From assembly GCA_964354105.1 (NCBI GenBank), contig CAYGXM010000001.1, positions 85,392-149,391 of the forward strand: a DNA stretch of 64,000 nt, read 5' to 3'. The first letter of the stretch is position 1; the number at the start of each line of letters is the position of its first letter. A model generated the notes under the pieces. That model searched no databases. It saw only the letters and a list, made by a program, of their open reading frames with translations, and was not told where the DNA came from. Source of the DNA: Candidatus Woesearchaeota archaeon (lineage in GTDB: Archaea > Nanobdellota > Nanobdellia > UBA10117). The translations under genes and the position numbers were made by a program. Below, piece by piece: positions 3,665 to 31,773 of this stretch.

Positions 3665-3948
3665 CTATAGTTGTGGAGCCAACTGAAAATTATTCTATGC
3701 TACCACTCGCAACACAAGAGTTTGTAACGAAAATGATATTTGGCAAGAGTTTTAATTCCCTGGATGATATATTTAACCAAAAAGATGAAAAGGGCCACAG
3801 AATGGGATCATTTTTTCGCCGATATGAAGTAAAAATTATACCCAAAAACCTACCTGAGCAAATAACAGAAATTAATCTAATCACTAATGGTGATTTTTAT
3901 ACAGAGTTTATTGCACTAAAAGCAAAATATACGGAGAAAAATGGTTGA
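3661..3948 (+). CDS. hypothetical protein
   Basis: 95-aa ORF with an ATGA overlap to the CYTH gene; GAGGAG Shine-Dalgarno-like sequence upstream. Confidence 0.45.
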   Translation: MTIVVEPTENYSMLPLATQEFVTKMIFGKSFNSLDDIFNQKDEKGHRMGSFFRRYEVKIIPKNLPEQITEINLITNGDFYTEFIALKAKYTEKNG

Positions 3949-4633: not shown

Positions 4634-4673
4634 GTGATTTTTCTATCCCTCAAATTAGTTAAATTTGAGTTAT
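4634..4673 (+). repeat. intergenic repeat family 3, short copy
   Basis: Sequence GTGATTTTTCTATCCCTCAAATTAGTTAAATTTGAGTTAT, containing the hairpin CTCAAATT/AATTTGAG. Confidence 0.6.
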
Positions 4674-5437
4674 TCATTATCAGGATTGCTGAATTCGTCA
4701 TCTTCGTCTTCTGGCTCTTCTGGTTCTGGCTCCCCGCCGCTGTCTGGCTTTTCATCACTTAGCTCTTCGTTTTCATTATTGTTATCTTCATCTTGAGCTT
4801 TAGTTTCTTCTGCAGCCTTTTCAGCAGCCTCTAGTCTTTCTTCAACCGCTTTTGAAATTGGAAGCTTTTGGTTTGACTTTACATTAAAGTATTCATAGAA
4901 CTTTTTTGTTGGCTGGAGCCATTTTGATAAGCCTGATTTATGTGATTCTATGAAGCCTTTTTCTATCAGAAGTTTGATGTGATTGTACGCTTTGTTTGAT
5001 CTTACACGAACAACATCACATTGTCTGCTGCCACCACGCCAGCCTATGTATGCCAGCGTTTCCAAAATGGATTTGTCAAATTCAGGCAATGCAGCATCCA
5101 AAACTAAAGTTGTATGTTCGTTTGGAATTGAAAATTTCCAGCGGCTGCCGTCTTGGATTAATTGGATAGCTCCTTTTCTAGTCTCATATTCTTTCTGAAG
5201 TTCCCTGAGAAGCTTGCCAACATCCGCTTTCAATCCAAGATTGAGCTTGTTTGCAAGGGCATCAACAGTAACACCATCAGGAATGCAGTAAAGTACAGAT
5301 TCTATTTTTGCCTTTAGTTCAGCATTGAGGTCTGGCTTTGATGGAGGGCTTTCTTCCTGCCGCTGTGGCTCTTGCGGCTGTTCAAATGGATCTTCAGGTT
5401 CGATATCCAGATTTTTTTTATTCTTCGTCTGTTTCAT
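4670..5437 (-). CDS. scpB: segregation and condensation protein B, with acidic C-terminal tail
   Basis: Winged-helix ScpB-like core (IESVLYCIPDGVTVDALANKLNL ... LETLAYIGWRGG). Sits downstream of scpA in the smc operon. Confidence 0.8.
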   Translation of the reverse strand: MKQTKNKKNLDIEPEDPFEQPQEPQRQEESPPSKPDLNAELKAKIESVLYCIPDGVTVDALANKLNLGLKADVGKLLRELQKEYETRKGAIQLIQDGSRWKFSIPNEHTTLVLDAALPEFDKSILETLAYIGWRGGSRQCDVVRVRSNKAYNHIKLLIEKGFIESHKSGLSKWLQPTKKFYEYFNVKSNQKLPISKAVEERLEAAEKAAEETKAQDEDNNNENEELSDEKPDSGGEPEPEEPEDEDDEFSNPDNE

Positions 5438-6206
5438 CTTCAGTAATTTCTCTTTCCCGCTTCAACGGCTTGCTAAGCTCCTTTTCAGATGTTTTAATAA
5501 ATATTTTGCCGAATGCTTCCTCTTGCACCAAATCCAGTTTACCTTCGTTTGCCAGATGCAATAATGGTATGAGTGTCCAAATCACGTCCCTTTTTTCTGT
5601 GCTCGGAATTATTTCTTCAAATGGTATCAATTTGCTCTTGAATTTTTTAGCTAATTCTCTGAGTTTTGAAAATACAACCTGGATTTTTGAAAAAATATCC
5701 GGCTTTTTTATATTTAAAAGCCTGGGAGCAGGCTTTAAATCCAAAACTCTCTGCCTTCTTCTCTCGTCTACTTCAAGAGCTTTCTTCAAAGATTCAACCA
5801 ATTCAAAAATTGTGACCTTTCTTTTTCTAGGGAAAGGAATTCTGCTTTGTAATTCAGCTTTTGTAAAATGCTTCTCAAGTTCCGAGCCATCCTCTGCATC
5901 AATTTCCGGCTCCTCAGGAGGATTCATCAACAAATATAATTGCTCCAAACCGATGCGCTCCGCCTTCATTTTTAACAGAACTGCTGCAGCGAGAATGACC
6001 TTGCCAGACAAGCGGAAATTCATTTCTTTCAGTTTTCTAACCATCTGTAGATATTCAACAGAAAGAACAGAAATGTCAATATCCCAAGGGTCTATTTTTC
6101 CTTCCCTGGCCAGTTCGTAAATGACAGACTGCCAGGTAACATCATCTTCCTGGAAAATCAAATTATGGACAACTTCATTCGGATTCAAATTCTTTATTTC
6201 AGTCAT
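5418..6206 (-). CDS. scpA: segregation and condensation protein A (kleisin)
   Basis: Motif WQSVIYELAREGKIDPWDIDISVLSVEYLQMV...FRLSGKVILAAAVLLKMK. ATG at 6206 forms an ATGA overlap with the M50 stop codon. Confidence 0.85.
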   Translation of the reverse strand: MTEIKNLNPNEVVHNLIFQEDDVTWQSVIYELAREGKIDPWDIDISVLSVEYLQMVRKLKEMNFRLSGKVILAAAVLLKMKAERIGLEQLYLLMNPPEEPEIDAEDGSELEKHFTKAELQSRIPFPRKRKVTIFELVESLKKALEVDERRRQRVLDLKPAPRLLNIKKPDIFSKIQVVFSKLRELAKKFKSKLIPFEEIIPSTEKRDVIWTLIPLLHLANEGKLDLVQEEAFGKIFIKTSEKELSKPLKREREITEDETDEE

Positions 6207-6847
6207 AGCATCACCGTAAGGATGAACATGAGGACGCTTAGGCCCATCACACCTCCCCAAATCCCCTTAGACCAATGCCAAACTTTTGCTCCATCCAGCA
6301 TAGAAATTGGAATCATATTGAAAATTGCCAGCCACGCATTAACTTGGGCGCCGATTTTGAAAATCAATAGCGGTGAAACTAGTGCAAGTGCTCCAAATAC
6401 CAAACAAAGTATTATGTTTATTACAGGTCCGATTACGCCAATTTCGCCCAAATCTTTTGGCTTTAATATTTGCATGGTGTAGCCAAATCGATTTCTTTTG
6501 ACAGGAGAGATCATTGTTGCACCAGGAGCTGCAAAGACAAATCCCCCTCTTGATATGATTGCCATACCAATTGCTAGAAGCAAGCCGGTTGGCCAGGCTC
6601 TGAATTCAGACCAAAGGCCTTTCGACTGTGCCATGAATTTATGCCCCAATTCATGCAAGACAAAAGCAAAGCCAACTGCAACTAATGATTGCAAAAAGAA
6701 AACCAGCATCGCAGTTATGTTGGAAAATAAACCTTGGCCGAAAATTTGGTCCCTGAAAAGTATAAACTGGAATGAAAACGCCAGAGCGACAAGAGCGGCA
6801 GCTATGTGCTTGATTTCTACAAATGAAAAAGTAAATTTTGGTTTCAT
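6203..6847 (-). CDS. site-2-protease family (M50) membrane metalloprotease
   Basis: HExxH motif HELGHKF and the second motif FNMIPISMLDG; multiple TM helices. Confidence 0.8.
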   Translation of the reverse strand: MKPKFTFSFVEIKHIAAALVALAFSFQFILFRDQIFGQGLFSNITAMLVFFLQSLVAVGFAFVLHELGHKFMAQSKGLWSEFRAWPTGLLLAIGMAIISRGGFVFAAPGATMISPVKRNRFGYTMQILKPKDLGEIGVIGPVINIILCLVFGALALVSPLLIFKIGAQVNAWLAIFNMIPISMLDGAKVWHWSKGIWGGVMGLSVLMFILTVML

Positions 6848-9800
6848 ATTTTCATGCTGACTATTACAGATTCTCCTTCCTTATTCATATGTACACCATA
6901 AACCGAATCTGCCTCCGATATTACAGAATCGTTGTGCGTAACAACAATGACCTGCGCTTTAGTACTGTATTCTTTCAAAAGTTTTGCAACTTTCTCAGAG
7001 TTTAATTTGTCAAGGGCAGCATCAATCTCATCTAAAAGATAGAAAGCGGCAGGTTCATGCTCCTGGATCGCAAAAATAAATGCGAGAGCAACAAGAACTT
7101 TTTCTCCGCCAGACAAAGAAGCTGCAGAAACTCTTTTCCGCTTTGAATCCATTATCCGGACTAAAATGCCAGCTTCAAACGGCTTCTCGAGGTTTTCCAG
7201 TTGCAAATCGCCCAGATACTTTGCGTTCGTTTTAGCATAAATTGTTGAGAAATGTCCATTGATTTCATTGTAAGTTTTCATAAATGCATCAGTCTTTTTA
7301 TTCTCAACTTCTTCTATTAAAGATAAGACTGAATTCTTCTCTTCCTGTAATTTTGAAACTCTGACAGCAAGCTCATTGTATTCCTTGATTACATCTTCAA
7401 AAACCTCCAAAGCTCGCATATTTACATTTCCGAGCGACTCTAATTTCACTTGTGCCTCATTAATTTTCTTTCTCGCCTCTTCTAAAGTTTTGAATTCTAC
7501 AGGCTCTATGCCAACAAAAGGCTTCAATTCCTCTCCAATAGCAGCCAATTCAGCCTCGTATTGTGCTTTTTCAATCGCAAAATTATTTTTTTCTGTGCCA
7601 ATTACATTTTGTTGCATTAAGAATTTATTGTAATCTGCTTCTGCGCTTCTCAACTGATTGCTCAACCCAGCCTGCTCCTCAAAAGCCAACTTTAATTTGC
7701 CATGGAAGCTTTCCTGTTCCGTTTCCTTAGCTTCCAGATTTTTCTCCAAGTTTTTCACTTTGGACTCTTCTTCTGAAATCTGTTTGTCGAAAGATTTCTT
7801 TTCCTTTTCCAATTCCTTCAAAACCCGCAATGTGTTTTCTCTGTCAGGTAAAAGGGCATTTTCAATCGTCGCTTTTACTGCCGCAAGTTTAGTCTCAAAC
7901 TCAGATTTTTTCTGCTGCAATTCCTCGACTTTAGATGCAGAGTCGCCAAACTGCAGATCGTGCAGTTGTGTTTTGATGGCATTTCTTTCTGAAACTTTCT
8001 CTGTTATCTTTACTTCAAGTTCGGCAAGATCCTTTTCCAATTCTTCTATTTTTGAGAAATTCTTTTTTGCAGAATCATTCAGTTGGGAGGCGCGCTTCTC
8101 TAAGCCGCCAATATCCCTGGTCAGCTGGCCTTTTTCCGTAAGCTCAGCCTTTGCGTCTACTTCAGCCTTTGCTTTTCTGAGCTCAAATAATTTATCTTCT
8201 AATTTGGCCCTTTCTTTTCCTAATTCGGAGAATTGTTCATTTAATTTCCCAAGTTCCAAGTCTAATTTATCAATCTGCTCTCTTGCTACAGTCTCAAAAA
8301 CAATGCCTGCCGCTTGCCTGAAGCCGCCAGTTATAGCCCCTGAGGGCTCGAATAAGTCCCCATCTAAAGTGACCATTCGGCATTTTCCAACGCCGATTGA
8401 TTTTGCAATATCTATGTTTTGAATAACAATGGTGTTTCTAAAAATATATTTGAAAACTTTGCTGTATTTTGGGTCACAGTCTATCAAAGTGTGCGCCAGC
8501 CCCAAAACGCCGGATTTTTTCAGGACAGCTTCTGGAACATCTTCCGTAGACATCTTTAATTTATCCAAAGGCAAGAATGTTGCAACACCTGCACGAGAGC
8601 TTTTCAGCATTTCCAGGCATTTTATGGCAGTATTTACAGAGTCAACAACAATATTCCTCATCCTGTTGCCGGCTGCTATGCTTAATGCAGTTGCATATTG
8701 CTGTTTTGCATTCCCTAATTCAGCAACAGTTCCATAAACTCCAGATATGTCTTTTTCTTTCAGCACGCGAATTGCAGCATCCCTCAACAGGGCTTCCTGT
8801 GAGCCCCTGGAAAGAATTTTATTTTTTGTAAGCTTCTCCTCTTTGCCGATAATTTCTTTTCTCAGCTCACCAAGCTCTAAAGCAAGCCTGGAATCTTCCC
8901 TTGCCAGCACATCAATTTCTTTCATTAATTTTTGCTGCTGCTCCTTTGCAACGGAGAAATCTTTTGTTGAATTTTTTAGCTGTGCAATTCTGTCTTCGAT
9001 AAATCTTAATTCACTCTCTTGAACTTGGAATTTTGCCTTAAATTGTTGAATTTCAGAGTTTGTCTTGTCCCTCTTGTTTTTTAGAGCATCAGCGTCTTTC
9101 TCAAATTTATCAACATCAGCTTCTAATTCCTTCAAATCTGCAATTGAGCCTTTTTTCAATGCAGATTCCTGCTTTTCTATAGCGGAGAGTTCTTTTTCCA
9201 GATTATTTCTTTCAGATTCGTTTTCTTTCAGCCTGTTGCCTAGTGTAGAAAGGTTTTGTTCCAAGTCAGCTTTTCTCTTTTGCACCTGCTCTATCTGGCT
9301 TAATGATGTCGAGATTAACGTTCTGGCCTTTTCTAATTCTACACGAACGGCTTCAACTTGCCTGTTCAATTGCAAAGATTCTTCTCCACCCTTCTTTTGA
9401 ATTTCTTTTTCCAATTTCTCCAATTGCTGCTTGAATTGTGCAATTTTTTTGCTGGAAATCTCAATTTCGAGTTTAATGTTATCTATTTCCATAATTTTGG
9501 CCTCGATGCTTGCGGCAACCTTATCCCTTCTTTCAAGCGCGTATTTTTTCTTTAATGATAATTCGCCAGTCTGGAATTTTTTAATGTCAGTTTGCAATTC
9601 TCTGTAAGTCTGGGCGCCTTTCTTTTCATCATCCAGATTTTTCATGTAAGTCTCTTTTTCCTTCAGAACAATGTTTACTTCCCTCAATTTTTCGTCAACT
9701 TTTCCTAATTCAGATAATGCTTTGGCTTTCTTTTCCTCATAAATTGCAATTCCTGCGACTTCCTCAATTAATTGCCTTCTCTCTATCGGTTTTAGGTCTA

Positions 9801-10248
9801 CAAACTTGTCAACATCGCCCTGCAAGATTATGTTGTGGCCGTCCGGGAAGATCCTTGCAGGCGCTAGAAGGTCGAGAACTTGTATTCTTGTGGCATTTTT
9901 CCCGTTTATTTTATATTGTGTCTGGCCCGTTTTCTTGATTTTTCTCTTCAATTCAACAGCTTTTTCTCCAAGTGGAAACATACCCTTGCTGTTGTCTAAA
10001 ACAATGCAGACTTCGCCTTCGGACGCGGATGCACTTTTCCTTTTGAACAACAAATCTGCGAAATTATCCGCTCGCATGTCGTGGGACGACCTTTTTCCCA
10101 GAATGAAGCATAAACTATCGAGGACATTGGATTTGCCAGAACCATTAGGACCGATAACACAGTTTAGGCCTGGCTGGAAAATTATGTCTATCTTCTTGTT
10201 AAAAGACTTGAAGCCACGCATATGCAGCGACTTAATAGCAGTGCCCAT
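6844..10248 (-). CDS. smc: chromosome segregation ATPase SMC
   Basis: 1134 aa. Walker A GPNGSGKSN, long coiled coils, a hinge, and the C-terminal signature LSGGEKVLVALAFIFAIQ...LLDEIDAALD. Confidence 0.95.
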   Translation of the reverse strand: MGTAIKSLHMRGFKSFNKKIDIIFQPGLNCVIGPNGSGKSNVLDSLCFILGKRSSHDMRADNFADLLFKRKSASASEGEVCIVLDNSKGMFPLGEKAVELKRKIKKTGQTQYKINGKNATRIQVLDLLAPARIFPDGHNIILQGDVDKFVDLKPIERRQLIEEVAGIAIYEEKKAKALSELGKVDEKLREVNIVLKEKETYMKNLDDEKKGAQTYRELQTDIKKFQTGELSLKKKYALERRDKVAASIEAKIMEIDNIKLEIEISSKKIAQFKQQLEKLEKEIQKKGGEESLQLNRQVEAVRVELEKARTLISTSLSQIEQVQKRKADLEQNLSTLGNRLKENESERNNLEKELSAIEKQESALKKGSIADLKELEADVDKFEKDADALKNKRDKTNSEIQQFKAKFQVQESELRFIEDRIAQLKNSTKDFSVAKEQQQKLMKEIDVLAREDSRLALELGELRKEIIGKEEKLTKNKILSRGSQEALLRDAAIRVLKEKDISGVYGTVAELGNAKQQYATALSIAAGNRMRNIVVDSVNTAIKCLEMLKSSRAGVATFLPLDKLKMSTEDVPEAVLKKSGVLGLAHTLIDCDPKYSKVFKYIFRNTIVIQNIDIAKSIGVGKCRMVTLDGDLFEPSGAITGGFRQAAGIVFETVAREQIDKLDLELGKLNEQFSELGKERAKLEDKLFELRKAKAEVDAKAELTEKGQLTRDIGGLEKRASQLNDSAKKNFSKIEELEKDLAELEVKITEKVSERNAIKTQLHDLQFGDSASKVEELQQKKSEFETKLAAVKATIENALLPDRENTLRVLKELEKEKKSFDKQISEEESKVKNLEKNLEAKETEQESFHGKLKLAFEEQAGLSNQLRSAEADYNKFLMQQNVIGTEKNNFAIEKAQYEAELAAIGEELKPFVGIEPVEFKTLEEARKKINEAQVKLESLGNVNMRALEVFEDVIKEYNELAVRVSKLQEEKNSVLSLIEEVENKKTDAFMKTYNEINGHFSTIYAKTNAKYLGDLQLENLEKPFEAGILVRIMDSKRKRVSAASLSGGEKVLVALAFIFAIQEHEPAAFYLLDEIDAALDKLNSEKVAKLLKEYSTKAQVIVVTHNDSVISEADSVYGVHMNKEGESVIVSMKI

Positions 10249-11151: not shown

Positions 11152-11295
11152 ATGGCTAAAGAAACAGAACGTGTAAAAGCGATATTTACAGTGAATAAAG
11201 AAACTTGGAAAAAATTCAAAGTAAAGGCAACGTTGGCAGATAGAAAGTATTCAGATGTTATAGAAGAATTAATTGAAAAATACTTGGAAAAGTAA
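11152..11295 (+). CDS. small ribbon-helix-helix (CopG-like) protein; not in the supplied ORF track
   Basis: 47-aa ORF MAKETERVKAIFTVNKETWKKFKVKATLADRKYSDVIEELIEKYLEK. The pattern is beta-strand, helix, helix. Its stop codon lies 1 nt before the ATG of the next gene. Confidence 0.5.
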   Translation: MAKETERVKAIFTVNKETWKKFKVKATLADRKYSDVIEELIEKYLEK

Positions 11296-11296
11296 A

Positions 11297-11959
11297 ATGG
11301 ATATTAAATTTCCGCAACCAAACGATCCTAAGCTAGCCGAATTTGTAGGTATTATGTTGGGCGATGGTTCATTGAACGAAAGAGGAATACAAATAACAAT
11401 GCATAGTATAGATGAAGTGGACTATACTACTTATGTTGTTAAAATTATAAACGAGCTATTTAATTTAAACGCTAAAGTTGTTAAGCGTAAAAATGCTAAT
11501 GCAGTAGATATTAGGGTTTATAGCAAAGAAATTGCTAGCTTTTTATTTAAGCTAGGCTTAATCAGAGCTCCAAAGTGGAAAAGAGCTATTATTCCTAATG
11601 GTTTTATTAACCAAAAACTTGGCAAATATGTACTACGTGGCTATTGCGATACTGATGGCTGTATAACATCCTACAAACGAACCGATAGGCGAAATCAAAA
11701 GCGGTGCCCGAGATTAGAAATGAAATTTTCTCCTTCACCCATGCAAGACCAATTTATAGATTTGTTAGAAATGTTTAACTTTAAATTTCGCAAATATCCA
11801 ATCTATAAAGAAGACAGAGGACGAAGTCTTGTGCGAATAAATGGCATTCCTGAAATAAGCAAGTGGATGAAAATTATTGGTACGCGCAACCCTAAGCACT
11901 ATGCTAAAATTAGTAATTATGTAGCGGGGGTAGGAATTCCACTGAACTACAAGGTGTAG
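11297..11959 (+). CDS. LAGLIDADG-family homing-endonuclease-like protein (two-motif, monomeric type)
   Basis: Two LAGLIDADG-type motifs, FVGIMLGDGSL and VLRGYCDTDGCI. ATG 11297 is preferred over the TTG at 11273. Confidence 0.8.
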   Translation: MDIKFPQPNDPKLAEFVGIMLGDGSLNERGIQITMHSIDEVDYTTYVVKIINELFNLNAKVVKRKNANAVDIRVYSKEIASFLFKLGLIRAPKWKRAIIPNGFINQKLGKYVLRGYCDTDGCITSYKRTDRRNQKRCPRLEMKFSPSPMQDQFIDLLEMFNFKFRKYPIYKEDRGRSLVRINGIPEISKWMKIIGTRNPKHYAKISNYVAGVGIPLNYKV

Positions 11960-12078
11960 CTCGTTTTGAACCTACGACCTCTTCACCTCTCGCAAACTTC
12001 GCTTGCGAAATCGGGTTATGAGCCCAGCGGGCAATCTGGCAACATTTTCGTGTTGTCTCCAGGCTGCCCTACCCCGCT
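11922..12078 (-). tRNA. initiator tRNA-Met (CAT) with three predicted introns
   Basis: Minus-strand read: AGCGGGG-TA-GGGC-AGCCTGG[~23 nt]ATT-GCCC-G-CTGGG-CTCATAA-CCCG[30 nt]G-AGGTC-GTAGG-TTCAAA[29 nt]T-CCTAC-CCCCGCT-A. It has an A1:U72 pair and three G:C pairs in the anticodon stem, as in archaeal initiator tRNAs. Each insert has an internal hairpin. Intron boundaries are approximate. Confidence 0.7.
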
Positions 12079-12148
12079 GAAAATGCAATCTTAAATTCCC
12101 TTTATAAAACTGACTACAGTCAGTTAATGTTTTCGTTAAAACAAAAGC

Positions 12149-14599: not shown

Positions 14600-14721
14600 G
14601 GGCCCATGGTCTAGTGGTTATGCGCTGAAATCGGCAAAAGCCAATTTCGCTGATTTGCGTATCCGCAAATGACGCCTGCTTGACGTGCAGGAGGTCGCAG
14701 GTTCGAATCCTGCTGGGCCCA
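14600..14721 (+). tRNA. tRNA-Val (GAC) with ~49-nt intron in the 3' side of the D-arm (about 14623..14671)
   Basis: Read: GGGCCCA-TG-GTCT-AGTGGTTA-TG[49 nt]AC-G-CCTGC-TTGACGT-GCAGG-AGGTC-GCAGG-TTCGAAT-CCTGC-TGGGCCC-A. Removing the insert restores a standard 73-nt cloverleaf. Confidence 0.8.
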
Positions 14722-20242: not shown

Positions 20243-22480
20243 TTGCTAAAATATAAAATGGAAATACGAACTAGAAATGTAATAAAGAAAATAGCCGCAA
20301 TTGGAAGCGGTGCTTTGATGGCAGCAACGTGCTTTGGCGTAGCAGGCTTAGCAACAGACCTAAGCGATTATCCAGCACCATTTGTCGCAGACGGCAAGTG
20401 GGTAGGATTAATTGCAGTTGGCTCTGATGCAGCAGCAGGCGACATCATAGGCGCGACAGACATCGCAGCAACACTAGCCCAAGTAGCAGGCGGTACAGCA
20501 GGAACGACGACAGTAACAGGTGGAAAAGAGAAGGAAGTTGACTTAGGAACATACTTGAACGCAACTGCAAACTTCGGAACAACTGCATTAGACGATGATG
20601 ACTTAGCAGGACTCCAAGACACAGCAATAACTATTGACATTGCAGAAGGCGATGACGACTTCGACGTATCGGACCAATTGAAGATAAGCGGAATCGGCAC
20701 AGATGCTGCATCTATACAAACTGGATTGACATTTGCAGCAAACCAAGATGAAGACTTTAAGGAAGACGCCTTCATGGCAATTCCAAAGGGCTCCATCGGA
20801 TATTACTATGTGTTTGATGACGCACCAACTGCAACAGTTAACTTGAGTGGCGCAGATGACAGTTATCCAATAGAATTAGACTTCTTAGGAAAGAAGTTAA
20901 TTATAACTGGTACAACTGCAACAAGTGTAACTGCACAAGTTGGCGAAGAATTCTTCATGAACACAGACGACACCGTAACTGTACTGGGACACACTGTAAA
21001 GTTGATTAATGTAGGCAGTGCTGGCGCAGTCGTTGTAAGTGTTGACGGAACACAAGAAACTGTATCTGGTGTTGAAAAGGTTGGCACAATGAGAATAAAA
21101 GTCAAAGAGACTTTCTATTCTGACACAAAAGCCGAAAGGTCTGCAACATTGGTCATTGGCGAAGACGCAACAAAGACATATGACAATGACGATCCATACA
21201 TAGGTGAAGATGAAGACGATCCTAATTGGGTATGGGACTTAGCAGGCGTAAACGGCTTGACACCTACAATTGGTATAACTTGGGACCAGGTATATGATGA
21301 CCCTGAAGAAGTTATTGCAATAGGTGGAAGCTTTGCATTACCAAACAACTATGTAACCATAAAGCCAACAGCATACACTGTAAATGACTACCAGACATAC
21401 ACAATCGGCACGGAAAGTGGCATAACATTAAGCTACAACAACGGCACTGGTGGAGACTTTAAGACATCTGCAAAGGCAGTACACATAGAAGCAAGTGGTG
21501 GCAGTGACGATGGCCTAAAGGTAAGCACATATGAGACCGATGACATATACTTGTACCTTGACACCGTTACAAACGACACAATAGTGTTCTACAAAGATAC
21601 AGATGACAATAAAATAAAGGATGCACTAACATACTTTAACACAACAGGTGACGACAAATTCACCTTAGAATACCAAGATTCATCGATAGGTGTTGATGGT
21701 GTAATAAATGCATCAGGACAGTTGACCCTTACCATTGATGAACAAAACAATGATGGCACAACAAACAACTTGAATTTGTTCTTACAACCAGTGGGTTGGG
21801 CTGCTGCAGACCTATACTATGGATACATAGGACACAGCGACGGCGACACAGTAACAGCAAGTGATTTGACGTATGGAACAAAAGACATCTCAGGCTGGGA
21901 AGAAAACACAAGGACGCAAAAGGGTCTAATTGTGCACAGCTACGATGCAAGCGCATCAAGCGATGAGTTTGTCTTTGAAGTACCATCAGACACAGCAGAC
22001 ATGGCTGTAAATGTGTTGATAAGCTCAAGTGGAACAAAGACAACTGTAACAGGCGGAGCAGGAACAATGAGTGGTGTACCTGTTGCGAAGTTAGACACAG
22101 AAATAACTGACGCAAAGGCACAGAACTTAATCCTGGTCGGCGGAACAGCTGTCAACAAGTTGACCGCAGAAGCATTAGGTTTGACATACCCAACGTATGG
22201 AACTGACGCATCAGTTGCCACAGGAATCGGCGCAGGCGAAGCAACTTTGAAGCTAGTCGAAAATGCATTCGGCGGCACAAACACTGCTTTGATTGTAGCT
22301 GGTTGGGAAGCGGCAGACACAAGAGCAGCAGCCAACGTGTTGAAAGACTACAGCGCATACAGTGCAACATTGACTGGCAAGCAAGTTATTGTTAAGTCCA
22401 CAGCGGGCACGATAACATTGTCAGCACCAACTGTAGCAGCACCAGCACCAGTACTACCTGAGACAAACGAGACTGTGTAA
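20243..22480 (+). CDS. putative S-layer / major surface glycoprotein
   Basis: 745 aa. Signal-like N-terminus IAAIGSGALMAATCFGVAGLA; Thr/Asp/Gly/Ala-rich with almost no Cys; many sequons. The C-terminal NLILVGGTAVNKLTAEALGL resembles euryarchaeal S-layer C-termini (from memory). AAGGAGG lies upstream and a hairpin plus T-run downstream. An alternative ATG start is at 20258. Confidence 0.6.
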   Translation: MLKYKMEIRTRNVIKKIAAIGSGALMAATCFGVAGLATDLSDYPAPFVADGKWVGLIAVGSDAAAGDIIGATDIAATLAQVAGGTAGTTTVTGGKEKEVDLGTYLNATANFGTTALDDDDLAGLQDTAITIDIAEGDDDFDVSDQLKISGIGTDAASIQTGLTFAANQDEDFKEDAFMAIPKGSIGYYYVFDDAPTATVNLSGADDSYPIELDFLGKKLIITGTTATSVTAQVGEEFFMNTDDTVTVLGHTVKLINVGSAGAVVVSVDGTQETVSGVEKVGTMRIKVKETFYSDTKAERSATLVIGEDATKTYDNDDPYIGEDEDDPNWVWDLAGVNGLTPTIGITWDQVYDDPEEVIAIGGSFALPNNYVTIKPTAYTVNDYQTYTIGTESGITLSYNNGTGGDFKTSAKAVHIEASGGSDDGLKVSTYETDDIYLYLDTVTNDTIVFYKDTDDNKIKDALTYFNTTGDDKFTLEYQDSSIGVDGVINASGQLTLTIDEQNNDGTTNNLNLFLQPVGWAAADLYYGYIGHSDGDTVTASDLTYGTKDISGWEENTRTQKGLIVHSYDASASSDEFVFEVPSDTADMAVNVLISSSGTKTTVTGGAGTMSGVPVAKLDTEITDAKAQNLILVGGTAVNKLTAEALGLTYPTYGTDASVATGIGAGEATLKLVENAFGGTNTALIVAGWEAADTRAAANVLKDYSAYSATLTGKQVIVKSTAGTITLSAPTVAAPAPVLPETNETV

Positions 22481-24749: not shown

Positions 24750-25434
24750 TCCTCTAAAATTGCTCGGAATTTTTGCAATCACTACCTTAATATTCTTATC
24801 AGGCTTTATGCTCTCAAAATCCCTGACAGGGTCTAAATTAGGAGATTTGGAGCAGGCAGTCAACGATATCACGCTGCAAACTGCAAGCATCGAAACCGAA
24901 TATAACTTATTGCTGGAAAATCCATGCAGCTTTGGCGGCTTCAACAGGCTTACAGCAAGTTTAGACGAGCTTGCAGGAAAACTTTTGTTCAATAATGCGC
25001 GGGAACAACAGACACAAACCCGACTTAATTCAATTAAGCAAAATTATTTTCTTTTAGAGACACGGCATTGGTTATTTGTGCAAAAATTAAACAAAGAATG
25101 TGGAACAAACTATACTCCAATGCTTTATTTCTATTCAGATCAAGGCGATTGCGATAATTGCGAAGCGCAGGGTATTGTCTTGTCTGAAATAAAGAAAACA
25201 CATCCAGATGCCATGATTTATTCTTTTGATACAAATGCGGATTATTCTCTTGTAAGCACAATAAAGGCAATATACAACATAACAACTGCGCCATCTGTCG
25301 TAATTAATAATACATTATATGATAAATTTCTTACGCAGGAAGATATAGAAAAAATACTTGGAAAGCTGAACACAAATGCAACAACCCAAAATCAGCCTGA
25401 AGCCTGTAATTCTTCCAACAGTACAGTCGCATAG
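24736..25434 (+). CDS. membrane-anchored thioredoxin-fold-like protein with CxxC (CDNC)
   Basis: N-terminal TM segment, then PMLYFYSDQGDCDNCEAQGIVLSEIKK...APSVVINN. This fits a Trx beta-alpha-beta pattern. Overlaps the GT2 gene by 14 nt. Confidence 0.45.
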   Translation: MHSVSPLKLLGIFAITTLIFLSGFMLSKSLTGSKLGDLEQAVNDITLQTASIETEYNLLLENPCSFGGFNRLTASLDELAGKLLFNNAREQQTQTRLNSIKQNYFLLETRHWLFVQKLNKECGTNYTPMLYFYSDQGDCDNCEAQGIVLSEIKKTHPDAMIYSFDTNADYSLVSTIKAIYNITTAPSVVINNTLYDKFLTQEDIEKILGKLNTNATTQNQPEACNSSNSTVA

Positions 25435-26474
25435 CATCCTTTTGGCAAGTTAAAGGATAACTTCAATTTCTGTTTATTCTTGTTGAAATCATCATTTTCT
25501 GGAGAACCAAATTTTAGCTTCTTGGGCTTTATAACAGCCATACGAGATTCCCCTTTTACAGCAATCTCTGGCATCCTTTTACAGTGGAAGCTCTCAAGAG
25601 TCAAATTGTCTTTTTCCAGAAGTCTTTTGATTGTCTGAGAGAAGCTATCTTTACTTAGTTTTGTCGCGAAGCCTGGAACTGGGAGATTCCCCTTAACAGT
25701 TTTAAGCGATTTTAATGCAGAGTTCCAAAGCCAGCTCTGATATGCATGTACATACAATTTCCTTATGTGTTTTGGCAGGATGCGCAAGGCTCCTGCAAAA
25801 TCATTGGGATTTTTAACAAGCCATTTGATTACATCTATTTCCAAATGCAGATGTTGGGGGAATCTTTCAAGGATGGAAGACCATTCCTTCCAATGCTGGG
25901 CAGCAAATTTCTTTGCTACTTTAACATCTTCTCGCTCCTTCTCGCCAGCAAAGCAAACTATTTCCCTAACAGCTTCATGCAATTGCCCTGTTAAGATATA
26001 TTTTCCAATTATGTGTGTGTTTCCCTTGCCGAATCTTTGCTCGCCGAAATAATTCCTGAAGCCTGATTTCTTTATTCTGGCGAAATTTTTCTTCAACTTT
26101 GATATCTCTTTGGTTGAGAGATCGCGAACTATAATCTCAAAGCGATTCCCTTTCAATGTCCCCAGTGAGATAGGCGCATCGCCAATGCCTATGATGTCTA
26201 TGGAAATATCCTTTAGTTTTATTTTTCGCAAGACTTCTGCAGGGATCTTGAAAGCTGAAACCAATTGTTTTGTAATTGCAATCTTGTCCTTGCTTCCAGC
26301 AAACTTGAATCTTCTTTGGGATGTATTGCAAGCTCTTGAAATTGCCCTTATTGCAGCTTCGGTTGTCCAGTTCTTTTTAGTCAGCCAGAAGTATGTTTGA
26401 TTTCCTTTTTCTTCCAACGGAATATTGATTAGTTCTTCCACTATAAAATCTTCAGGTATTTGCTTGATGCGCAT
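25392..26474 (-). CDS. truD: tRNA pseudouridine synthase TruD/Pus7 family
   Basis: Motifs IKQIPEDFIVEE, LKGNRFEIIVR and FRNYFGEQRFG. Confidence 0.85.
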   Translation of the reverse strand: MRIKQIPEDFIVEELINIPLEEKGNQTYFWLTKKNWTTEAAIRAISRACNTSQRRFKFAGSKDKIAITKQLVSAFKIPAEVLRKIKLKDISIDIIGIGDAPISLGTLKGNRFEIIVRDLSTKEISKLKKNFARIKKSGFRNYFGEQRFGKGNTHIIGKYILTGQLHEAVREIVCFAGEKEREDVKVAKKFAAQHWKEWSSILERFPQHLHLEIDVIKWLVKNPNDFAGALRILPKHIRKLYVHAYQSWLWNSALKSLKTVKGNLPVPGFATKLSKDSFSQTIKRLLEKDNLTLESFHCKRMPEIAVKGESRMAVIKPKKLKFGSPENDDFNKNKQKLKLSFNLPKGCYATVLLEELQASG

Positions 26475-27063
26475 TTCGTGCTTTCCAAATCCAATATCCA
26501 ATAATTATAAATATTCCAATAATTACAATCAGCTGGAATTTGTCGAAGGTTGCTATTATTGCCTGCCACCGCTCCCCTAAAATATAGCCAAAGTAAATAA
26601 AAATAATTGTCCAGGGAATTATTCCAAGTATGCTATAGAACAAAAATTTCCTGAAATTCATCTTTGCTATGCCTGCTGGAAATGATATCACAGTTCTTAC
26701 AACTGGCAAGAGCCTTCCGAAGAAAATTGTTGCAGAGCCATATTTCTTAAACCAGTTGTCCACACGGGCAAACTTCTTTTCGCTTAGGTGCAGGTATTCG
26801 CCGTACTTTAGTATGGCTGGCCTGCCGCCATAGTGGCCAATTGAGTATGAAATTATAGAACCGAAAAGTTGCCCTAAAATCGCAATTACTATTGCTGAAA
26901 AGAAAGTCATTTGCCCAGAGTAGACCAAAAAGCCTGCAAATGGAAGTACTATTTCTGAAGGTATTGGCAACAGTGCAGATTCGCCAGTCATTAGAAAAAA
27001 TAAGCCTAAGTAACCGGATTTTGAAATCAAGTCCGTAACGAATGAAGCCAATCCAAATACCAT
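26452..27063 (-). CDS. DedA/SNARE-associated family membrane protein
   Basis: Motifs GESALLPIPSEIVLPFAGFLV and GRLLPVVRTVISFPAG. The start is trimmed to MVFGLASF so that it does not overlap the Zn-ribbon gene. Confidence 0.75.
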   Translation of the reverse strand: MVFGLASFVTDLISKSGYLGLFFLMTGESALLPIPSEIVLPFAGFLVYSGQMTFFSAIVIAILGQLFGSIISYSIGHYGGRPAILKYGEYLHLSEKKFARVDNWFKKYGSATIFFGRLLPVVRTVISFPAGIAKMNFRKFLFYSILGIIPWTIIFIYFGYILGERWQAIIATFDKFQLIVIIGIFIIIGYWIWKARNAHQANT

Positions 27064-27103
27064 AACGCAACATTTAAAAGAGCTAATTTTAAGCCTTTCC
27101 AGT

Positions 27104-27259
27104 ATGAAATCGTGCATATCCTGCAAAAAATCGACGGAAAATGACCGCTCTGCAGCCAGCTTTAGCTGTCCTGCCTGCAATGAAGCTATAACGAGATGCG
27201 GAAACTGCAGGAAAACTTCAGTTGCTTACAGATGCAAATGCGGTTTTGAGGGTCCATAA
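27104..27259 (+). CDS. small Zn-ribbon protein (the type that precedes aEF-1beta in archaea); not in the supplied ORF track
   Basis: 51-aa ORF MKSCISCKKSTENDRSAASFSCPACNEAITRCGNCRKTSVAYRCKCGFEGP, containing four CxxC/CxC pairs. Confidence 0.6.
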   Translation: MKSCISCKKSTENDRSAASFSCPACNEAITRCGNCRKTSVAYRCKCGFEGP

Positions 27260-27329
27260 TTCTAATGGTACAATTTATCTCAATGTTCACAAACGTTACG
27301 AAAATGCAGGGAGAATTGACATAAATTGT

Positions 27330-27608
27330 ATGGCAGATGTTATTGTAAAGCTAAAAGTAATGCCCTCTGATCCAAGCGCAGATCTGCTTAAAATGCAGAA
27401 GGCCTGTGAAATAGAAATAAAAAAATTCGGTGCTAAAGTCATACACTCTGTAAAGCAGGAGCCTGTTGCTTTCGGCTTGAAAGCTCTGGTAATCATATTC
27501 CTGATTGATGAAAAAATATCAAACATGGATGTTTTGGAAGCAGCCATAAAGAAAATTCATGATGTCCAGTCCGCAGAAATTATTGATGTGAGAAGAGCTT
27601 TGGGCTAG
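27330..27608 (+). CDS. translation elongation factor aEF-1 beta
   Basis: Sequence MADVIVKLKVMPSDPSADL...EPVAFGLKALVIIFLIDE...VQSAEIIDVRRAL; about 92 aa, typical length. Confidence 0.85.
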   Translation: MADVIVKLKVMPSDPSADLLKMQKACEIEIKKFGAKVIHSVKQEPVAFGLKALVIIFLIDEKISNMDVLEAAIKKIHDVQSAEIIDVRRALG

Positions 27609-27704
27609 GGTTATCTCTTGATGTCTGGTTAGACTTTCTATAGCTTTGGGTGAACTTTTGCTGATGTTAGGAACTAACCCGCGAGCGAAGCGAGCTAGCC
27701 TTTA

Positions 27705-27726
27705 GAAACATTTATACATTTATACT
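27705..27726 (+). promoter_or_regulatory. BRE/TATA-like promoter of fen
   Basis: GAAACATTTATACATTTATACT, 29 nt upstream of the ATG. Confidence 0.45.
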
Positions 27727-27739
27727 TTTGTGTTGAGAC

Positions 27740-28735
27740 ATGGGAGTTAACCTTAGAGACCTTTTGATAAAACACAAGTTTGAGCTGGAAGACCTGAATG
27801 GCAAGAAGATAGCAATTGATGCTTTCAATACACTCTATCAATTTCTTTCTATAATTAGGCAGCCAGATGGCCAACCACTGATGGATTCTAAAGGAAATGT
27901 TACTTCACATTTATCTGGCTTGTTTTACAGGACAATCAATCTTTTGGAGGTTGGAGCGAAGCCAGTTTTTGTTTTTGATGGAAAAGCCCCTTTTGAAAAG
28001 GTTTCAGTCCAGGTTTCCAGGGAAGAAATAAGAGAGCAGGCCAGGGCAAAACACGCTGAAGCTCTGGCTGCAGGCCAGCTGGAAGAGGCAAGGAAATATG
28101 CACAGCAAACAGCCAGATTAACAAGGGAAATAATCCAGGAATCTAAAGAACTGATAAGTGCAATGGGCCTGCCATGGGTACAAGCCATGGCAGAAGGCGA
28201 AGCCCAGGCAGCATACATGTGCAGGAAAGGAGATGTTTGGGCGGTTGCATCGCAGGATTATGATGCTTTATTGTTTGCAACAACAAGGTTGGTTAGAAAT
28301 CTGACAATAAGTGGAAGAAGAAAAGTAGATTCAAAAACAATTGCTGTTGAGCCAGAGTTGATAGACTTAGCTGAATGCCTGAATTTCCTGAGCATAGACA
28401 TTGAAAAATTAGTTGAACTTGCCTTGTTGATAGGAACAGATTATAATCCTGGCGGTGTTTCAGGAATAGGGCCTAAAACTGCCCTGAAAGTCATCAAGGA
28501 AGGGAAATTTTCAGATTATTCAGATAAAATTTCAAATGTAGATCGTTTGAAGCAATTATTCCTGAAGCCAACAATAGTAACAGATTATTCTTTGGAGTGG
28601 AAAGCTCCAAATCCAAAAAAGATAAGAGAAATTTTAGTGGAAAAACATGAATTCTCGGAAGAGCGTGTTGATGTTGCCCTGAAGAGACTGGAAAAAGCTC
28701 CTATTTCGCAGAAAGGGCTCGGCGATTTTCTTTAA
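27740..28735 (+). CDS. fen: flap endonuclease 1
   Basis: Motifs MGVNLRDLL..KIAIDAFNTLYQFLS, VFVFDGKAP, SQDYDALLF and LIGTDYNPGGVSGIGPKTA. Confidence 0.95.
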   Translation: MGVNLRDLLIKHKFELEDLNGKKIAIDAFNTLYQFLSIIRQPDGQPLMDSKGNVTSHLSGLFYRTINLLEVGAKPVFVFDGKAPFEKVSVQVSREEIREQARAKHAEALAAGQLEEARKYAQQTARLTREIIQESKELISAMGLPWVQAMAEGEAQAAYMCRKGDVWAVASQDYDALLFATTRLVRNLTISGRRKVDSKTIAVEPELIDLAECLNFLSIDIEKLVELALLIGTDYNPGGVSGIGPKTALKVIKEGKFSDYSDKISNVDRLKQLFLKPTIVTDYSLEWKAPNPKKIREILVEKHEFSEERVDVALKRLEKAPISQKGLGDFL

Positions 28736-29714
28736 ATCTTAAATAAAATTTGCTGGCAAAATATACCAGTATAACTGCAACAGTTGTTAATGCCAATGAA
28801 ATTAAAATTGAAAATGAATCTGCAATTTTCAGTAATTCTAATGGCTTTATTATGAACAAGAAGTGCCCGACGTATATTCCAAAAGCCAGTTTTCCATAAA
28901 CAGCCAGCTTTTTCCACAAGGCAGAGGCAGGGAATTTTTGCCAAAGTGCATACGCTCCTAAAATTATCAAAGCAGGCTCGCCTATCCCCAGCAAGAAGCA
29001 GCTGAATGTCCTGCTGTAAAAGTCCAGTTTTATGCCTGCAAAATGTAGGATAATTGCTGAAACAGTAAATATTAATGCTAGCGCAAGAATTTTTGTTTTG
29101 GGTTTATTGCGTCTTATTAGATTAAAGAACAAAACACCAGCCAGCATAAATGGCAGCAAGTGTGTAACTGAAAACCAGCCGCGCCAAAGCATGCTCTCTA
29201 TAAAATTTACTATAGCACTGGAATGGAAGCTGAATGCTGTTGAAAATAATCCTATTTGAAGCAAGCCTACTCCAAAAATCAGAGCGAGCAGATGCTTGTT
29301 CTTTGGCTTGAATAATAAAATAGCTGCAGTTACGATTGCAGTCAAGCCTAAGCCTTGTATGGCTTCTTCCCAGCCCAGATAAGTTGACAGGCCGAACATG
29401 AACCAAGTGAAAGGTATGCTAAGCAGTACATACTTGCCGTATCTTTTAGTTACATTCCAAAATGTTGTTCCTTTGCTCAAGGCTGAAAATTTATTTAGCA
29501 GCAAAACAACGCTCATTCCAACGACAAAAGTAAATACTCCAAAACAAGGATAAATTGTTACTAAATTAAACTGCGAGTTCGGCAAAATAAAATCTGAATA
29601 TATGCTTTTAGTGGAAAAACGGTCGAATAGCTGGAAAAATATCATAGAGACGATAGCAATTCCTCTGAAAACATCAACGTATTCAAGCCTTTGTTTCATT
29701 TTCAACTTCAGCAA
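28701..29714 (-). CDS. DUF1624/acyltransferase-like polytopic membrane protein
   Basis: N-terminal RLEYVDVFRGIAIVSMIFFQ followed by about 9 TM helices. An alternative start is at 29699. Confidence 0.6.
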   Translation of the reverse strand: MLKLKMKQRLEYVDVFRGIAIVSMIFFQLFDRFSTKSIYSDFILPNSQFNLVTIYPCFGVFTFVVGMSVVLLLNKFSALSKGTTFWNVTKRYGKYVLLSIPFTWFMFGLSTYLGWEEAIQGLGLTAIVTAAILLFKPKNKHLLALIFGVGLLQIGLFSTAFSFHSSAIVNFIESMLWRGWFSVTHLLPFMLAGVLFFNLIRRNKPKTKILALALIFTVSAIILHFAGIKLDFYSRTFSCFLLGIGEPALIILGAYALWQKFPASALWKKLAVYGKLAFGIYVGHFLFIIKPLELLKIADSFSILISLALTTVAVILVYFASKFYLRFKENRRALSAK

Positions 29715-30429
29715 TAGTTTTTACAGTTATGTTGGGATTTTTGATTTGCTCTAAAACCCAATTATAATCTTCTGGCGATAAATCAATATCAGGCCTAGGA
29801 TTATCGCTGACATCATGAATTGCCAAAACAAGCCAGCCACCATTCGATTTCAAATCTTCCAGATATGTTGGCAAAAGCTCCTTGTAATTATTATGTGTTA
29901 AGGCAAGCCCATTAAGCTCAGTTTCATTTTTCATGTCAATAGGGTTTATTCCACCATTTACATTTCTTCGGATTGGATAATATTCTTTTGTGATTTCAGT
30001 ATGGTTTATGTCATTGTAAGGATATGCAAAACTTTCTACAGTTATGTTATGCTGCTCAAGCAAGTCTTTTCCCTGTTTAATTTCAGATTCCCATTCGCTT
30101 TCACTGAGATTGCTTGCTTTTGCATGAGTCAGAGTATGCCCGCCAATCTCATGTCCCCTGTTCTGCAAATCTGAAACCTGCTCCCAGCTCATAACAGGAA
30201 TGTTTTCAAAATAACCGCCTGCAAGCCCTGATGGGAAATAAATTGTTCCATGCCAGCCATATTTTTCCAATTCCAAGGCAGAATTATATTCAGAGACATA
30301 ACCATCATCAAAAGTTATGCTGATTATTGCTTCTTTTGCGTTTTGCTGCGGAATATTATACTGACCAACAAGCAAAAGCCCCATGGCTATGAGAAAGCCC
30401 GCAATTATTGCCGTTGCTAATCTTTTCAT
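29683..30429 (-). CDS. membrane-anchored polysaccharide deacetylase (NodB homology domain)
   Basis: N-terminal TM segment; motifs ISITFDDGY and GGHTLTH. Confidence 0.8.
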   Translation of the reverse strand: MKRLATAIIAGFLIAMGLLLVGQYNIPQQNAKEAIISITFDDGYVSEYNSALELEKYGWHGTIYFPSGLAGGYFENIPVMSWEQVSDLQNRGHEIGGHTLTHAKASNLSESEWESEIKQGKDLLEQHNITVESFAYPYNDINHTEITKEYYPIRRNVNGGINPIDMKNETELNGLALTHNNYKELLPTYLEDLKSNGGWLVLAIHDVSDNPRPDIDLSPEDYNWVLEQIKNPNITVKTIAEVENETKA

Positions 30430-30467
30430 AATTTAAGCTAAAATGATAGAAATTTAAGCTCTACGGT

Positions 30468-31544: not shown

Positions 31545-31566
31545 TTTTGTCTCCTAAAGTATAAAG

Positions 31567-31639
31567 TGGGGTGACCCGGATTTGAACCGAGATGTGCCGC
31601 TCTGGAGGCGGCCATACTGCCAGGTTATACTATCACCCC
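31567..31639 (-). tRNA. tRNA-Trp (CCA)
   Basis: Minus-strand read: GGGGTGA-TA-GTAT..GCCGC-CTCCAGA-GCGGC-ACAT-CTCGG-TTCAAAT-CCGGG-TCACCCC-A. Confidence 0.9.
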
Positions 31640-31773
31640 ATTTGTAACGCGTTCTATTAAGATTGCGTTAGTATTTAAATTTGATAAAAATCGGGCTATC
31701 TGTGCGCTTCTTTCAACGCCAAAGATAACCACCTTTTTCCATAAACTTAATACAAAACCGGTGTTTATAAGCC

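Follow-up and report, generated by a model that had tools for sequence, protein, structure and literature searches.

Introns at odd positions in archaeal tRNA genes pose a long-standing question, and the proposals put forward include protection against mobile elements and transposition of the introns themselves. Archaeal tRNAs have been described with at most three introns, mainly in Thermoproteales, with tRNA-Glu(UUC) of Pyrobaculum calidifontis and tRNA-Pro(UGG) of P. islandicum as examples (PMC4390854; PMC8450103). Here we analyse a 64,000-nt stretch of contig CAYGXM010000001.1 (hereafter the window), in which a gene for the initiator tRNA-Met (tRNAi-Met) carries three introns and is overlapped by a gene of the LAGLIDADG homing endonuclease family. 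The host is a DPANN archaeon of the class Nanoarchaeia, mesophile-like and with ~40% GC. Judged from its sequence, the locus at 12078..11922 on the minus strand is very probably a functional tRNAi-Met gene whose introns are spliced by the endonuclease EndA.

The window gene has much in common with the multi-intron tRNA genes of Thermoproteales. Both combine up to three short bulge-helix-bulge (BHB) introns at non-canonical sites with strict and relaxed (hBH, HBh') motifs side by side. The Thermoproteales genes require a broad-specificity EndA and are missed by simple tRNA finders, as is the gene described here. Unlike these hyperthermophilic crenarchaeotes, the window represents a mesophile-like DPANN lineage, and it is the initiator tRNA that is affected. 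The type of EndA presumably differs from that of Thermoproteales as well. Intron copies of similar sequence were found neither in the window nor in any fetched locus, so nothing here points to intron transposition of the kind known from Thermoproteales. Closer to the host, disrupted tRNA genes have already been reported in DPANN and Hadesarchaea in association with an L3-loop alpha4-type EndA, and the accessible part of that report leaves further unidentified disrupted genes for manual curation to find (PMC5829648). The window gene displays the same phenomenon in the same superphylum. The survey considers gene types per genome, and its accessible part contains no three-intron tRNAi-Met, no intron hot spots and no linked LAGLIDADG gene.

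Initiator tRNA genes in pieces have also been described. The tRNAi-Met of Nanoarchaeum equitans is a split gene. That of Thermofilum pendens is permuted, with its junction at 59/60 and an intron at 37/38 (PMC3978253, PMC4090602). In these two species, as in the window, an essential initiator tRNA is interrupted and rebuilt via BHB processing, and the 59/60 break point is common to the window and T. pendens. The pieces in the window are nonetheless collinear and would be spliced in cis, being neither permuted nor distributed over separate genes.

The unspliced gene spans ~157 nt, from A12078 at its start to A11922 as discriminator, and consists of four exons and three introns, all on the minus strand. 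In this order it reads AGCGGGGTAGGGCAGCCTGGAG / acaacacgaaaatgttgccagat / TGCCCGCTGGGCTCATAACCCG / atttcgcaagcgaagtttgcgagaggtgaa / GAGGTCGTAGGTTCAAA / acgagctacaccttgtagttcagtggaat / TCCTACCCCCGCTA, with exons in capitals. Exon 1 (12057..12078, 22 nt) comprises the acceptor 5' strand, U8 and A9, the D-stem 5' strand, and the D-loop to G20a. Intron 1 (12034..12056, 23 nt) interrupts the D-loop at 20a/21 and has a strict hBHBh' motif. Exon 2 (12012..12033, 22 nt) continues with U21, the D-stem 3' strand, G26, and the anticodon stem-loop to G42, where intron 2 (11982..12011, 30 nt) enters the 3' strand of the anticodon stem at position 42/43 with a relaxed HBh' motif. Exon 3 (11965..11981, 17 nt) provides G43, the variable loop, the T-stem 5' strand, and the T-loop to A59. 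The T-loop is interrupted at 59/60 by intron 3 (11936..11964, 29 nt), which has an hBH-type motif, and is completed by exon 4 (11922..11935, 14 nt) with U60, the T-stem 3' strand, the acceptor 3' strand, and discriminator A73. CCA is not encoded, and a TTTT run is present at 11909..11906. A TATA-box-like element, TTTATAAA, can be read at 12101..12108 on the minus strand, 22 nt from A1 and with its centre ~26 nt upstream. As this is the usual TATA position in archaea, the element is a putative promoter. The stretch 12057..12111 on this side of the gene is 85% conserved in locus L125 and 81–82% in L124 and L091 (loci are given by their L numbers throughout).

Joined together, the exons form a canonical archaeal tRNAi-Met, as the original prediction had proposed from the sequence alone. 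In archaea, initiator tRNAs are marked by an A1:U72 pair and three G:C pairs at 29-31:39-41, while elongator tRNAs have G1:C72. Both marks are found here, with A12078 opposite T11923 and GGG (12025-12023) opposite CCC (12015-12013). The anticodon CAT (12020..12018) lies within the 7-nt loop CTCATAA, and the T-arm reads GTAGG-TTCAAAT-CCTAC; the two marks, the anticodon and the T-arm had all been named beforehand and can be read in the sequence. Once the introns are removed, ARAGORN calls a 75-nt tRNA-Met(CAT) and the minimum free energy (MFE) fold is a cloverleaf. The expectation that standard tRNA finders would miss the unspliced gene was borne out. ARAGORN, with its intron option included, found three other tRNAs in the window and did not call it, and neither did Rfam detect it in gathering mode or at E<=10. 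Compared with an intronless gene of another genome (L085), the spliced product has a single mismatch in 75 positions, and the L085 gene itself scores 65 bits against the Rfam tRNA model RF00005. This near identity and the rarity of the BHB configurations exclude a chance resemblance to tRNAi.

The splice sites were assigned using a BHB geometry in which a 4-bp helix H pairs exon positions -6..-3 with intron positions -6..-3, and cleavage follows base 2 of each 3-nt bulge. In intron 1, H is complete (CTGG at 12062-12059 with CCAG at 12039-12036, 4/4), the bulges are AG|A and AT|T, the inner helix h' has 5 bp (CAACA/TGTTG), and the outer helix h has 2 bp. An unconstrained MFE fold keeps its 5' bulge, H and h'. 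Intron 2 has a canonical 5' half with bulge CG|A and an h' of 10 bp by script count. Intron 3 again displays a complete H (TTCA at 11970-11967 with TGGA at 11941-11938, 4/4) and two 3-nt bulges, AA|A and AT|T. Its outer helix is the 5-bp T-stem, and its inner helix begins with 1 bp followed by the hairpin CTACA/TGTAG. The BHB conformer of intron 3 lies just 0.9 kcal/mol above the MFE, and a precursor conformer holding all three BHBs lies 4.4 kcal/mol above it. Random pairs of window positions yield configurations equal in quality to introns 1 and 3 at rates of 2.4e-5 and 6.3e-5, respectively, and alternative splice registers score 0–2 of 4 in H. The precursor as a whole folds much better than shuffled sequence (z = -6.3; none of 200 shuffles as good).

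These boundaries agree with the original prediction for the second and third inserts, whose coordinates (12011..11982, 30 nt; 11964..11936, 29 nt) were exact. The hairpins it assigned to the three inserts (CAACA/TGTTG, TCGCAA/TTGCGA and CTACA/TGTAG) are all present, and BHB-type introns at three non-canonical positions (20a/21, 42/43 and 59/60) correspond to its reading. For the first insert the length of 23 nt stood but the rough placement at 12058..12036 did not, as the BHB register gives 12056..12034, 2 nt further 3'. The earlier placement was rejected because H reaches 2/4 there against 4/4 for the new one, and the D-loop GGATT it implies was not seen among the intronless homologues inspected. 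The shift changes one D-loop base, so that ...CUGGAGUGCCC replaces ...CUGGAUUGCCC, and most intronless homologues read GGAGTGCCC, matching the predicted junction. For intron 2, the junction CCC|AG, which would give a U28-A42 pair as in L085, was likewise rejected, with H at 0/4 and CCCGG in the syntenic gene of L044. This intronless L044 gene reads CCCGGAGGTC, which matches the junction adopted here.

The distribution of such introns was examined by scanning 185,579 species genomes with exon 2, which returned at least 119 loci, most from Micrarchaeota and other DPANN. Among the at least 119 loci listed, the tRNAi gene has no intron in ~67, one in 34, two in 4, and three in five loci other than the window (L019, L028, L064, L093 and L091). 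Three-intron tRNAi-Met genes are thus found in Micrarchaeota (L019), Norongarragalinales (L028) and Hadesarchaea (L064/L093), and also in other Nanoarchaeia and Woesearchaeota (L091, L129, L176). In a survey of 72 introns from homologous tRNAi genes, H reaches 4 bp in 43 introns and 3 bp or more in 62; our own estimate of the chance expectation is ~2% and ~15%, respectively. The introns cluster at hot spots, in linear positions 9/10, 22/23, 31/32, 43-46, 55/56 and 61/62, and three of these recurrent sites are occupied together in the window gene. The 9/10 site accounts for 22 of the 72, nearly all in Micrarchaeota, and 59/60 is the second most frequent (19/72). Sites 22/23 and 61/62 are common to Hadesarchaea (L064, L093) and Nanoarchaeia. 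The intron 1 site is also occupied in L126, L091, L093/L064, L052, L107 and L121, with covarying H and h'. The exon strand of H (CUGG, UUGG or CAGG) changes together with the intron strand (CCAG, CCAA or CCUG), a pattern drawn from few independent sequences. A metagenome scan for genes bearing intron 1 gave only 3 matches, two of them identical to L091, and for this reason BHB-register counts over the 72 introns were used instead of formal covariation statistics.

Several relatives share the gene neighbourhood of the window. L044 (Ca. Nanoarchaeia) is syntenic, with RNase HII 67%, a 304-aa protein 48% and TrkA 75% identical, and its tRNAi is intronless. The syntenic L091 (Nanoarchaeia) has three introns, two of which occupy window sites 1 and 2. 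More distant syntenic relatives are L126 (ENA ERZ27247725) and L127 (JGI Ga0315285_10078376), with RNase HII at 64% and TrkA at 51%, in which the tRNAi-Met gene (L126 5807..5617, minus strand) has four introns. In L126 these measure 23, 30, 31 and 32 nt and lie at 20a/21, 30/31, 42/43 and 59/60, so that three sites are common to the window. The intron hairpins of the two genes differ in sequence with pairing kept (CAACA/TGTTG in the window, CAGCA/TGCTG in L126), and the exon stems show compensatory changes from the window to L126 (G7:C66 to A7:U66; C27-G43/U28.G42 to U27-A43/C28-G42). Such compensatory changes in both exons and introns imply purifying selection on the interrupted gene. The 42/43 introns of L126 (H 4/4) and L091 both possess 10-bp h' helices of unrelated sequence. 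The most fragmented gene, in L131 (ENA ERZ27248349 k141_648658; 3845..3676, minus strand), has six putative micro-introns of 11, 15, 17, 17, 24 and 11 nt between exons of 22, 9, 8, 10, 12, 5 and 9 nt. All six introns have an H of 3–4 bp that fits the BHB register, and splicing them out leaves a perfect 75-nt tRNAi. The exons of the window gene, L126 and L131 are all 22 nt or shorter.

A tRNAi-Met with three introns is therefore a gene structure of an already known type, since disrupted DPANN tRNAs have been reported and other public genomes contain three-intron tRNAi-Met genes. The original prediction had presented triple-intron tRNAs as a feature mainly of Thermoproteales and the find as notable for it. 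This overstates the rarity, given the disrupted tRNA genes already on record for DPANN and Hadesarchaea (PMC5829648), the three-intron tRNAi genes of several lineages, and the relatives with four and six putative introns. The novelty of the gene itself is modest. With it, the initiator tRNA of Nanoarchaeia joins the tRNAs known to have three-intron genes. The relatives with four and six putative introns exceed the published limit of three. The unexpected part is the linkage to an endonuclease gene, and it is this linked family, together with the hyper-fragmented genes, that deserves further attention. Within the literature searched, neither an earlier link between LAGLIDADG genes and tRNAi-Met nor an archaeal tRNA with four or more introns was found.

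The LAGLIDADG gene lies at 11297..11959 on the plus strand and encodes 220 aa from its ATG, within an open reading frame (ORF) that opens at TTG 11273. It matches Pfam LAGLIDADG_WhiA and LAGLIDADG_2. The gene is convergent with tRNAi and overlaps its last 38 nt, comprising exon 4 and part of intron 3. In close relatives the stop codon TAG is the reverse complement of the 3'-terminal CTA of the tRNA; a 1-nt frame difference in the window lets the ORF read 12 codons further, into intron 3. Two LAGLIDADG motifs are present, LAEFVGIMLGDGS and VLRGYCDTDGC, and an alignment of 15 sequences shows D23 and D120 to be invariant. An AlphaFold2 model (predicted local distance difference test, pLDDT, 89.6; predicted template modelling score, pTM, 0.88) displays the alpha-beta-beta-alpha-beta-beta-alpha double-domain fold. 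Foldseek with this model returned homing endonucleases throughout, the best full-length PDB match being I-Tsp061I (2dch) with template modelling (TM) scores of 0.72/0.77, while sequence searches of PDB and NCBIfam returned intein endonuclease domains only. The ratio of nonsynonymous to synonymous substitution rates (dN/dS) is 0.12–0.135 against L124 and L125, and the gene is conserved and, as judged from these sequence data, apparently active. In all, 377 family members were detected, in DPANN. Viral contigs hold only distant relatives of at most 33% identity, which leaves a viral origin unsupported. The gene is absent between tRNAi and RNase HII in the syntenic L044 and also absent from L091/L123. 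Such patchy presence at a locus that is conserved in other respects, with an orientation relative to the tRNA that varies among lineages, is the behaviour of a mobile gene. Like I-Tsp061I and I-DmoI (PDB 2dch, 2vs7), the predicted protein has a monomeric two-motif LAGLIDADG fold of ~200 aa. Those enzymes are encoded within archaeal rRNA BHB introns, whereas the window gene is outside the introns and beside the tRNA gene, and the sequence identity to them is only ~13–16%.

Directly upstream, its stop separated by 1 nt from the ATG of the LAGLIDADG gene, is a 47-aa ORF (MAKETERVKAIFTVNKETWKKFKVKATLADRKYSDVIEELIEKYLEK; 11152..11295, plus strand). Gene calls in L120, L124 and L125 include it as well; it is 98% identical in L124 and L125 and conserved more strongly than any neighbouring gene. 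It has no NCBIfam match, and no Pfam family is recorded for it in L120, L124 or L125; our impression is of a small DNA-binding protein.

The surroundings of the LAGLIDADG gene were examined in 10 relatives of 200–240 aa and 33–89% identity from Woesearchaeota, Nanohaloarchaea and other DPANN. All ten lie within ~115 nt of a tRNAi-Met gene, as does the window gene. The two are convergent in L126 (overlap ~104 nt), in L124, L125 and L131 (overlap 3 nt), and in L130, L133 and L176 (gap up to 9 nt). The LAGLIDADG gene is on the same strand downstream of tRNAi in L128 and upstream in L132, and divergent in L129. As all four relative orientations occur, the pattern is not operon-like. A LAGLIDADG gene likewise adjoins tRNAi in the Micrarchaeota loci L019 and L046, and the cultured Ca. 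Nanohalobium constans (L130) has the same arrangement. Putative introns in the adjacent tRNAi genes number none in L125, one in L124 and L132, two in L128, L130 and L133, three in L129 and L176, four in L126, and six in L131, compared with three in the window. Every intron has a BHB-compatible H, and splicing gives a perfect tRNAi in each case. Comparing intron counts between loci that have the endonuclease gene and loci that lack it does not amount to a statistical test, as taxonomy and the route by which loci were found confound the comparison.

The tRNAi alleles are also incongruent with their flanks. The window exons differ from those of the distant L126 at 6 of 75 positions, with three intron sites common, and from those of L124 and L125 at 11 of 75, with all introns different (one or none there), even though the proteins flanking tRNAi in L124 and L125 are 80–98% identical to those of the window. 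Such a pattern points to gene conversion or allele replacement at the tRNAi locus, and homing with co-conversion would give it.

Further observations concern other LAGLIDADG genes and the neighbours of tRNAi. In L134, a distant 351-aa LAGLIDADG gene lies between two tRNA-Ser genes (2361-3599), and in L112 (~1050-2060) another distant one lies between two tRNA-like genes with long inserts, missed by ARAGORN. Second LAGLIDADG copies in L130 (~57) and L131 (~1439) adjoin T-arm motifs. L130 (CP040089, with tRNAi at ~156.67–156.82 kb) and L133 (Nanohaloarchaea) contain a cluster of LAGLIDADG, tRNAi-Met with two introns, RNase HII and EndA, in which the EndA of 179–181 aa (tRNA_int_endo_N and tRNA_int_endo) is two genes from tRNAi. 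RNase HII also neighbours tRNAi in the window, L044, L085, L126 and L132.

Free-standing endonucleases that cut intron-less alleles are known from collaborative homing, as with F-CphI, encoded beside a cyanophage psbA intron (PMC6083498), and a trans-homing free-standing endonuclease is encoded by mobE of phage T4 (PMC2790892). As in collaborative homing, the window has an endonuclease gene beside rather than inside the host gene, no ORF lies within the introns of that gene, syntenic relatives differ in whether they possess the endonuclease gene, and the flanking alleles are mosaic. The likeness is a functional analogy only. F-CphI and mobE are phage-borne and associated with self-splicing group I introns, and their cleavage has been shown; the window has an archaeal host, BHB introns of a type spliced by proteins in a tRNA gene, and a predicted endonuclease known from its sequence and a model.

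We infer that the gene is transcribed, that its transcript is cleaved and ligated, and that the product is used in translation initiation. The TATA-box promoter would give rise to a precursor of ~157 nt, which is expected to fold as an extended cloverleaf in which one intron each lengthens the D-arm, the T-arm and, on its 3' side, the anticodon arm. Each intron would form one BHB motif with its adjoining exon, and EndA would cut between the second and third base of every 3-nt bulge, making six cuts in total. An RtcB-type ligase would then join the four exons of 22+22+17+14 nt, and CCA would be added to the 75-nt product after ligation.

Several observations weigh against this account. In intron 2, H consists of 3 bp and an A.G mismatch, (A)ACC/GGT(G), and the 3' splice site occupies a 3x3 internal loop in place of a clean 3-nt bulge. 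The MFE fold pairs part of the 3' bulge of intron 1 and puts a longer hairpin where the H helix of intron 3 would be. These flaws mean that splicing of all three introns would need a broad-specificity enzyme or alternative conformers, and no EndA or RtcB gene was found in the 64-kb window, where 67 ORFs were scanned without a tRNA_int_endo match. The search for a second tRNAi-Met, which found none, covers the same 64 kb, and an intact copy may lie elsewhere. On this limited view of the genome, the imperfect BHB of intron 2 and the failure of every tRNA finder used to detect the unspliced locus could also describe a decaying pseudogene with three insertions, the working initiator tRNA being encoded elsewhere. 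We regard this as highly improbable. The four stems and initiator identity elements are all intact, the exons are only 1 nt off the intronless L085 homologue, and the window contains no other GGGCTCATAACCC-type anticodon arm. The original prediction had taken junctions unable to form any BHB-like motif, along with an intact initiator gene elsewhere, as the sign of a pseudogene, but such motifs were found at all three junctions and every insertion is in BHB register. In L126 the same three sites are occupied, with compensatory changes in exons and introns, and promoter and synteny are conserved. A chimeric or misjoined contig, a concern because the window apparently derives from a metagenomic genome, has a negligible probability. 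The Logan assembly of run ERR4334736 (L120, contig ERR4334736_42413, 3996 nt), made independently, carries the identical 157-nt sequence and its neighbours, and assemblies of relatives from further samples show the same architecture (L126 and L127, of two sources).

Granted a functional three-intron gene, its introns may exist because of the adjacent LAGLIDADG endonuclease, a possible but rather doubtful extension of this reading. The enzyme may cut alleles without an endonuclease gene at the uninterrupted tRNAi-Met or its 3' flank, and repair may then copy the endonuclease gene with the intron-bearing tRNA allele, spreading introns by co-conversion. Alternatively, introns may have been selected for breaking a ~20-bp recognition site in exons that are otherwise unable to change. 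The exons of at most 22 nt in the window, L126 and L131 speak for an endonuclease link in general, and tRNA gene disruption has been proposed as protection against mobile elements (PMC4390854). The adjacency in all ten examined relatives regardless of orientation, and in two Micrarchaeota loci, argues for a link of either kind, as do the intron counts of the adjacent tRNAi genes (0, 1, 1, 2, 2, 2, 3, 3, 4 and 6, with 3 in the window) beside 67 intronless genes among the ~110 tRNAi loci listed by exon pattern. Part of the linkage may nevertheless be old synteny, with RNase HII a repeated neighbour of both genes (window, L124, L126, L130, L132, L133), and the intron-number comparison is confounded by phylogeny and by how loci were found. 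The tRNAi of L125 is intronless despite its adjoining endonuclease gene, three-intron tRNAi genes occur in L091, L093/L064 and L028 without a LAGLIDADG gene in the vicinity, and most Micrarchaeota tRNAi introns, at site 9/10, have no adjacent endonuclease gene. Absence of the endonuclease gene from the syntenic L044 and L091, the disagreement of the tRNAi allele tree with the flanks, and the parallel with collaborative homing (PMC6083498, PMC2790892) speak for the link, as do the invariant catalytic Asp pair, the homing-endonuclease fold and the dN/dS of ~0.12. Strong purifying selection also fits a domesticated, non-homing role. The more distant LAGLIDADG genes of L112 and L134 and the second copies of L130 and L131, which adjoin tRNA genes or T-arm motifs, raise the tentative idea that DPANN LAGLIDADG families target tRNA genes, that the window family is specific to tRNAi-Met, and that fragmentation is the consequence. 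If true, the endonuclease link would provide a concrete and experimentally testable selective driver for the gain of non-canonical introns in archaeal tRNAs.

A second hidden tRNA gene is present in the window at 14600..14721 on the plus strand, where a T-arm motif belongs to a tRNA-Val(GAC) with one 49-nt intron (14620..14668) in the D-loop at 20/21. Its H is GTGG/CCGC, with bulges TT|A and AA|A. Splicing gives a 73-nt product that is recognised as tRNA-Val; unspliced, the gene was missed by ARAGORN and Rfam. For annotation, this means that genomes of the lineage will seem to be without tRNAi, and without other tRNAs such as this tRNA-Val, unless searches are intron-aware. Pfam gave no match for over half of the 67 ORFs scanned in the window. 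The gene content at 4670..10248 (minus strand), 20243..22480 (plus strand) and 25392..32817 fits a small archaeal genome, and the window genes include SMC-ScpA-ScpB, an S-layer-like protein, TruD, EF-1beta, FEN1 and Trm5/TYW2. A class I tRNA synthetase of the Trp/Tyr type is located beside a tRNA-Trp gene.

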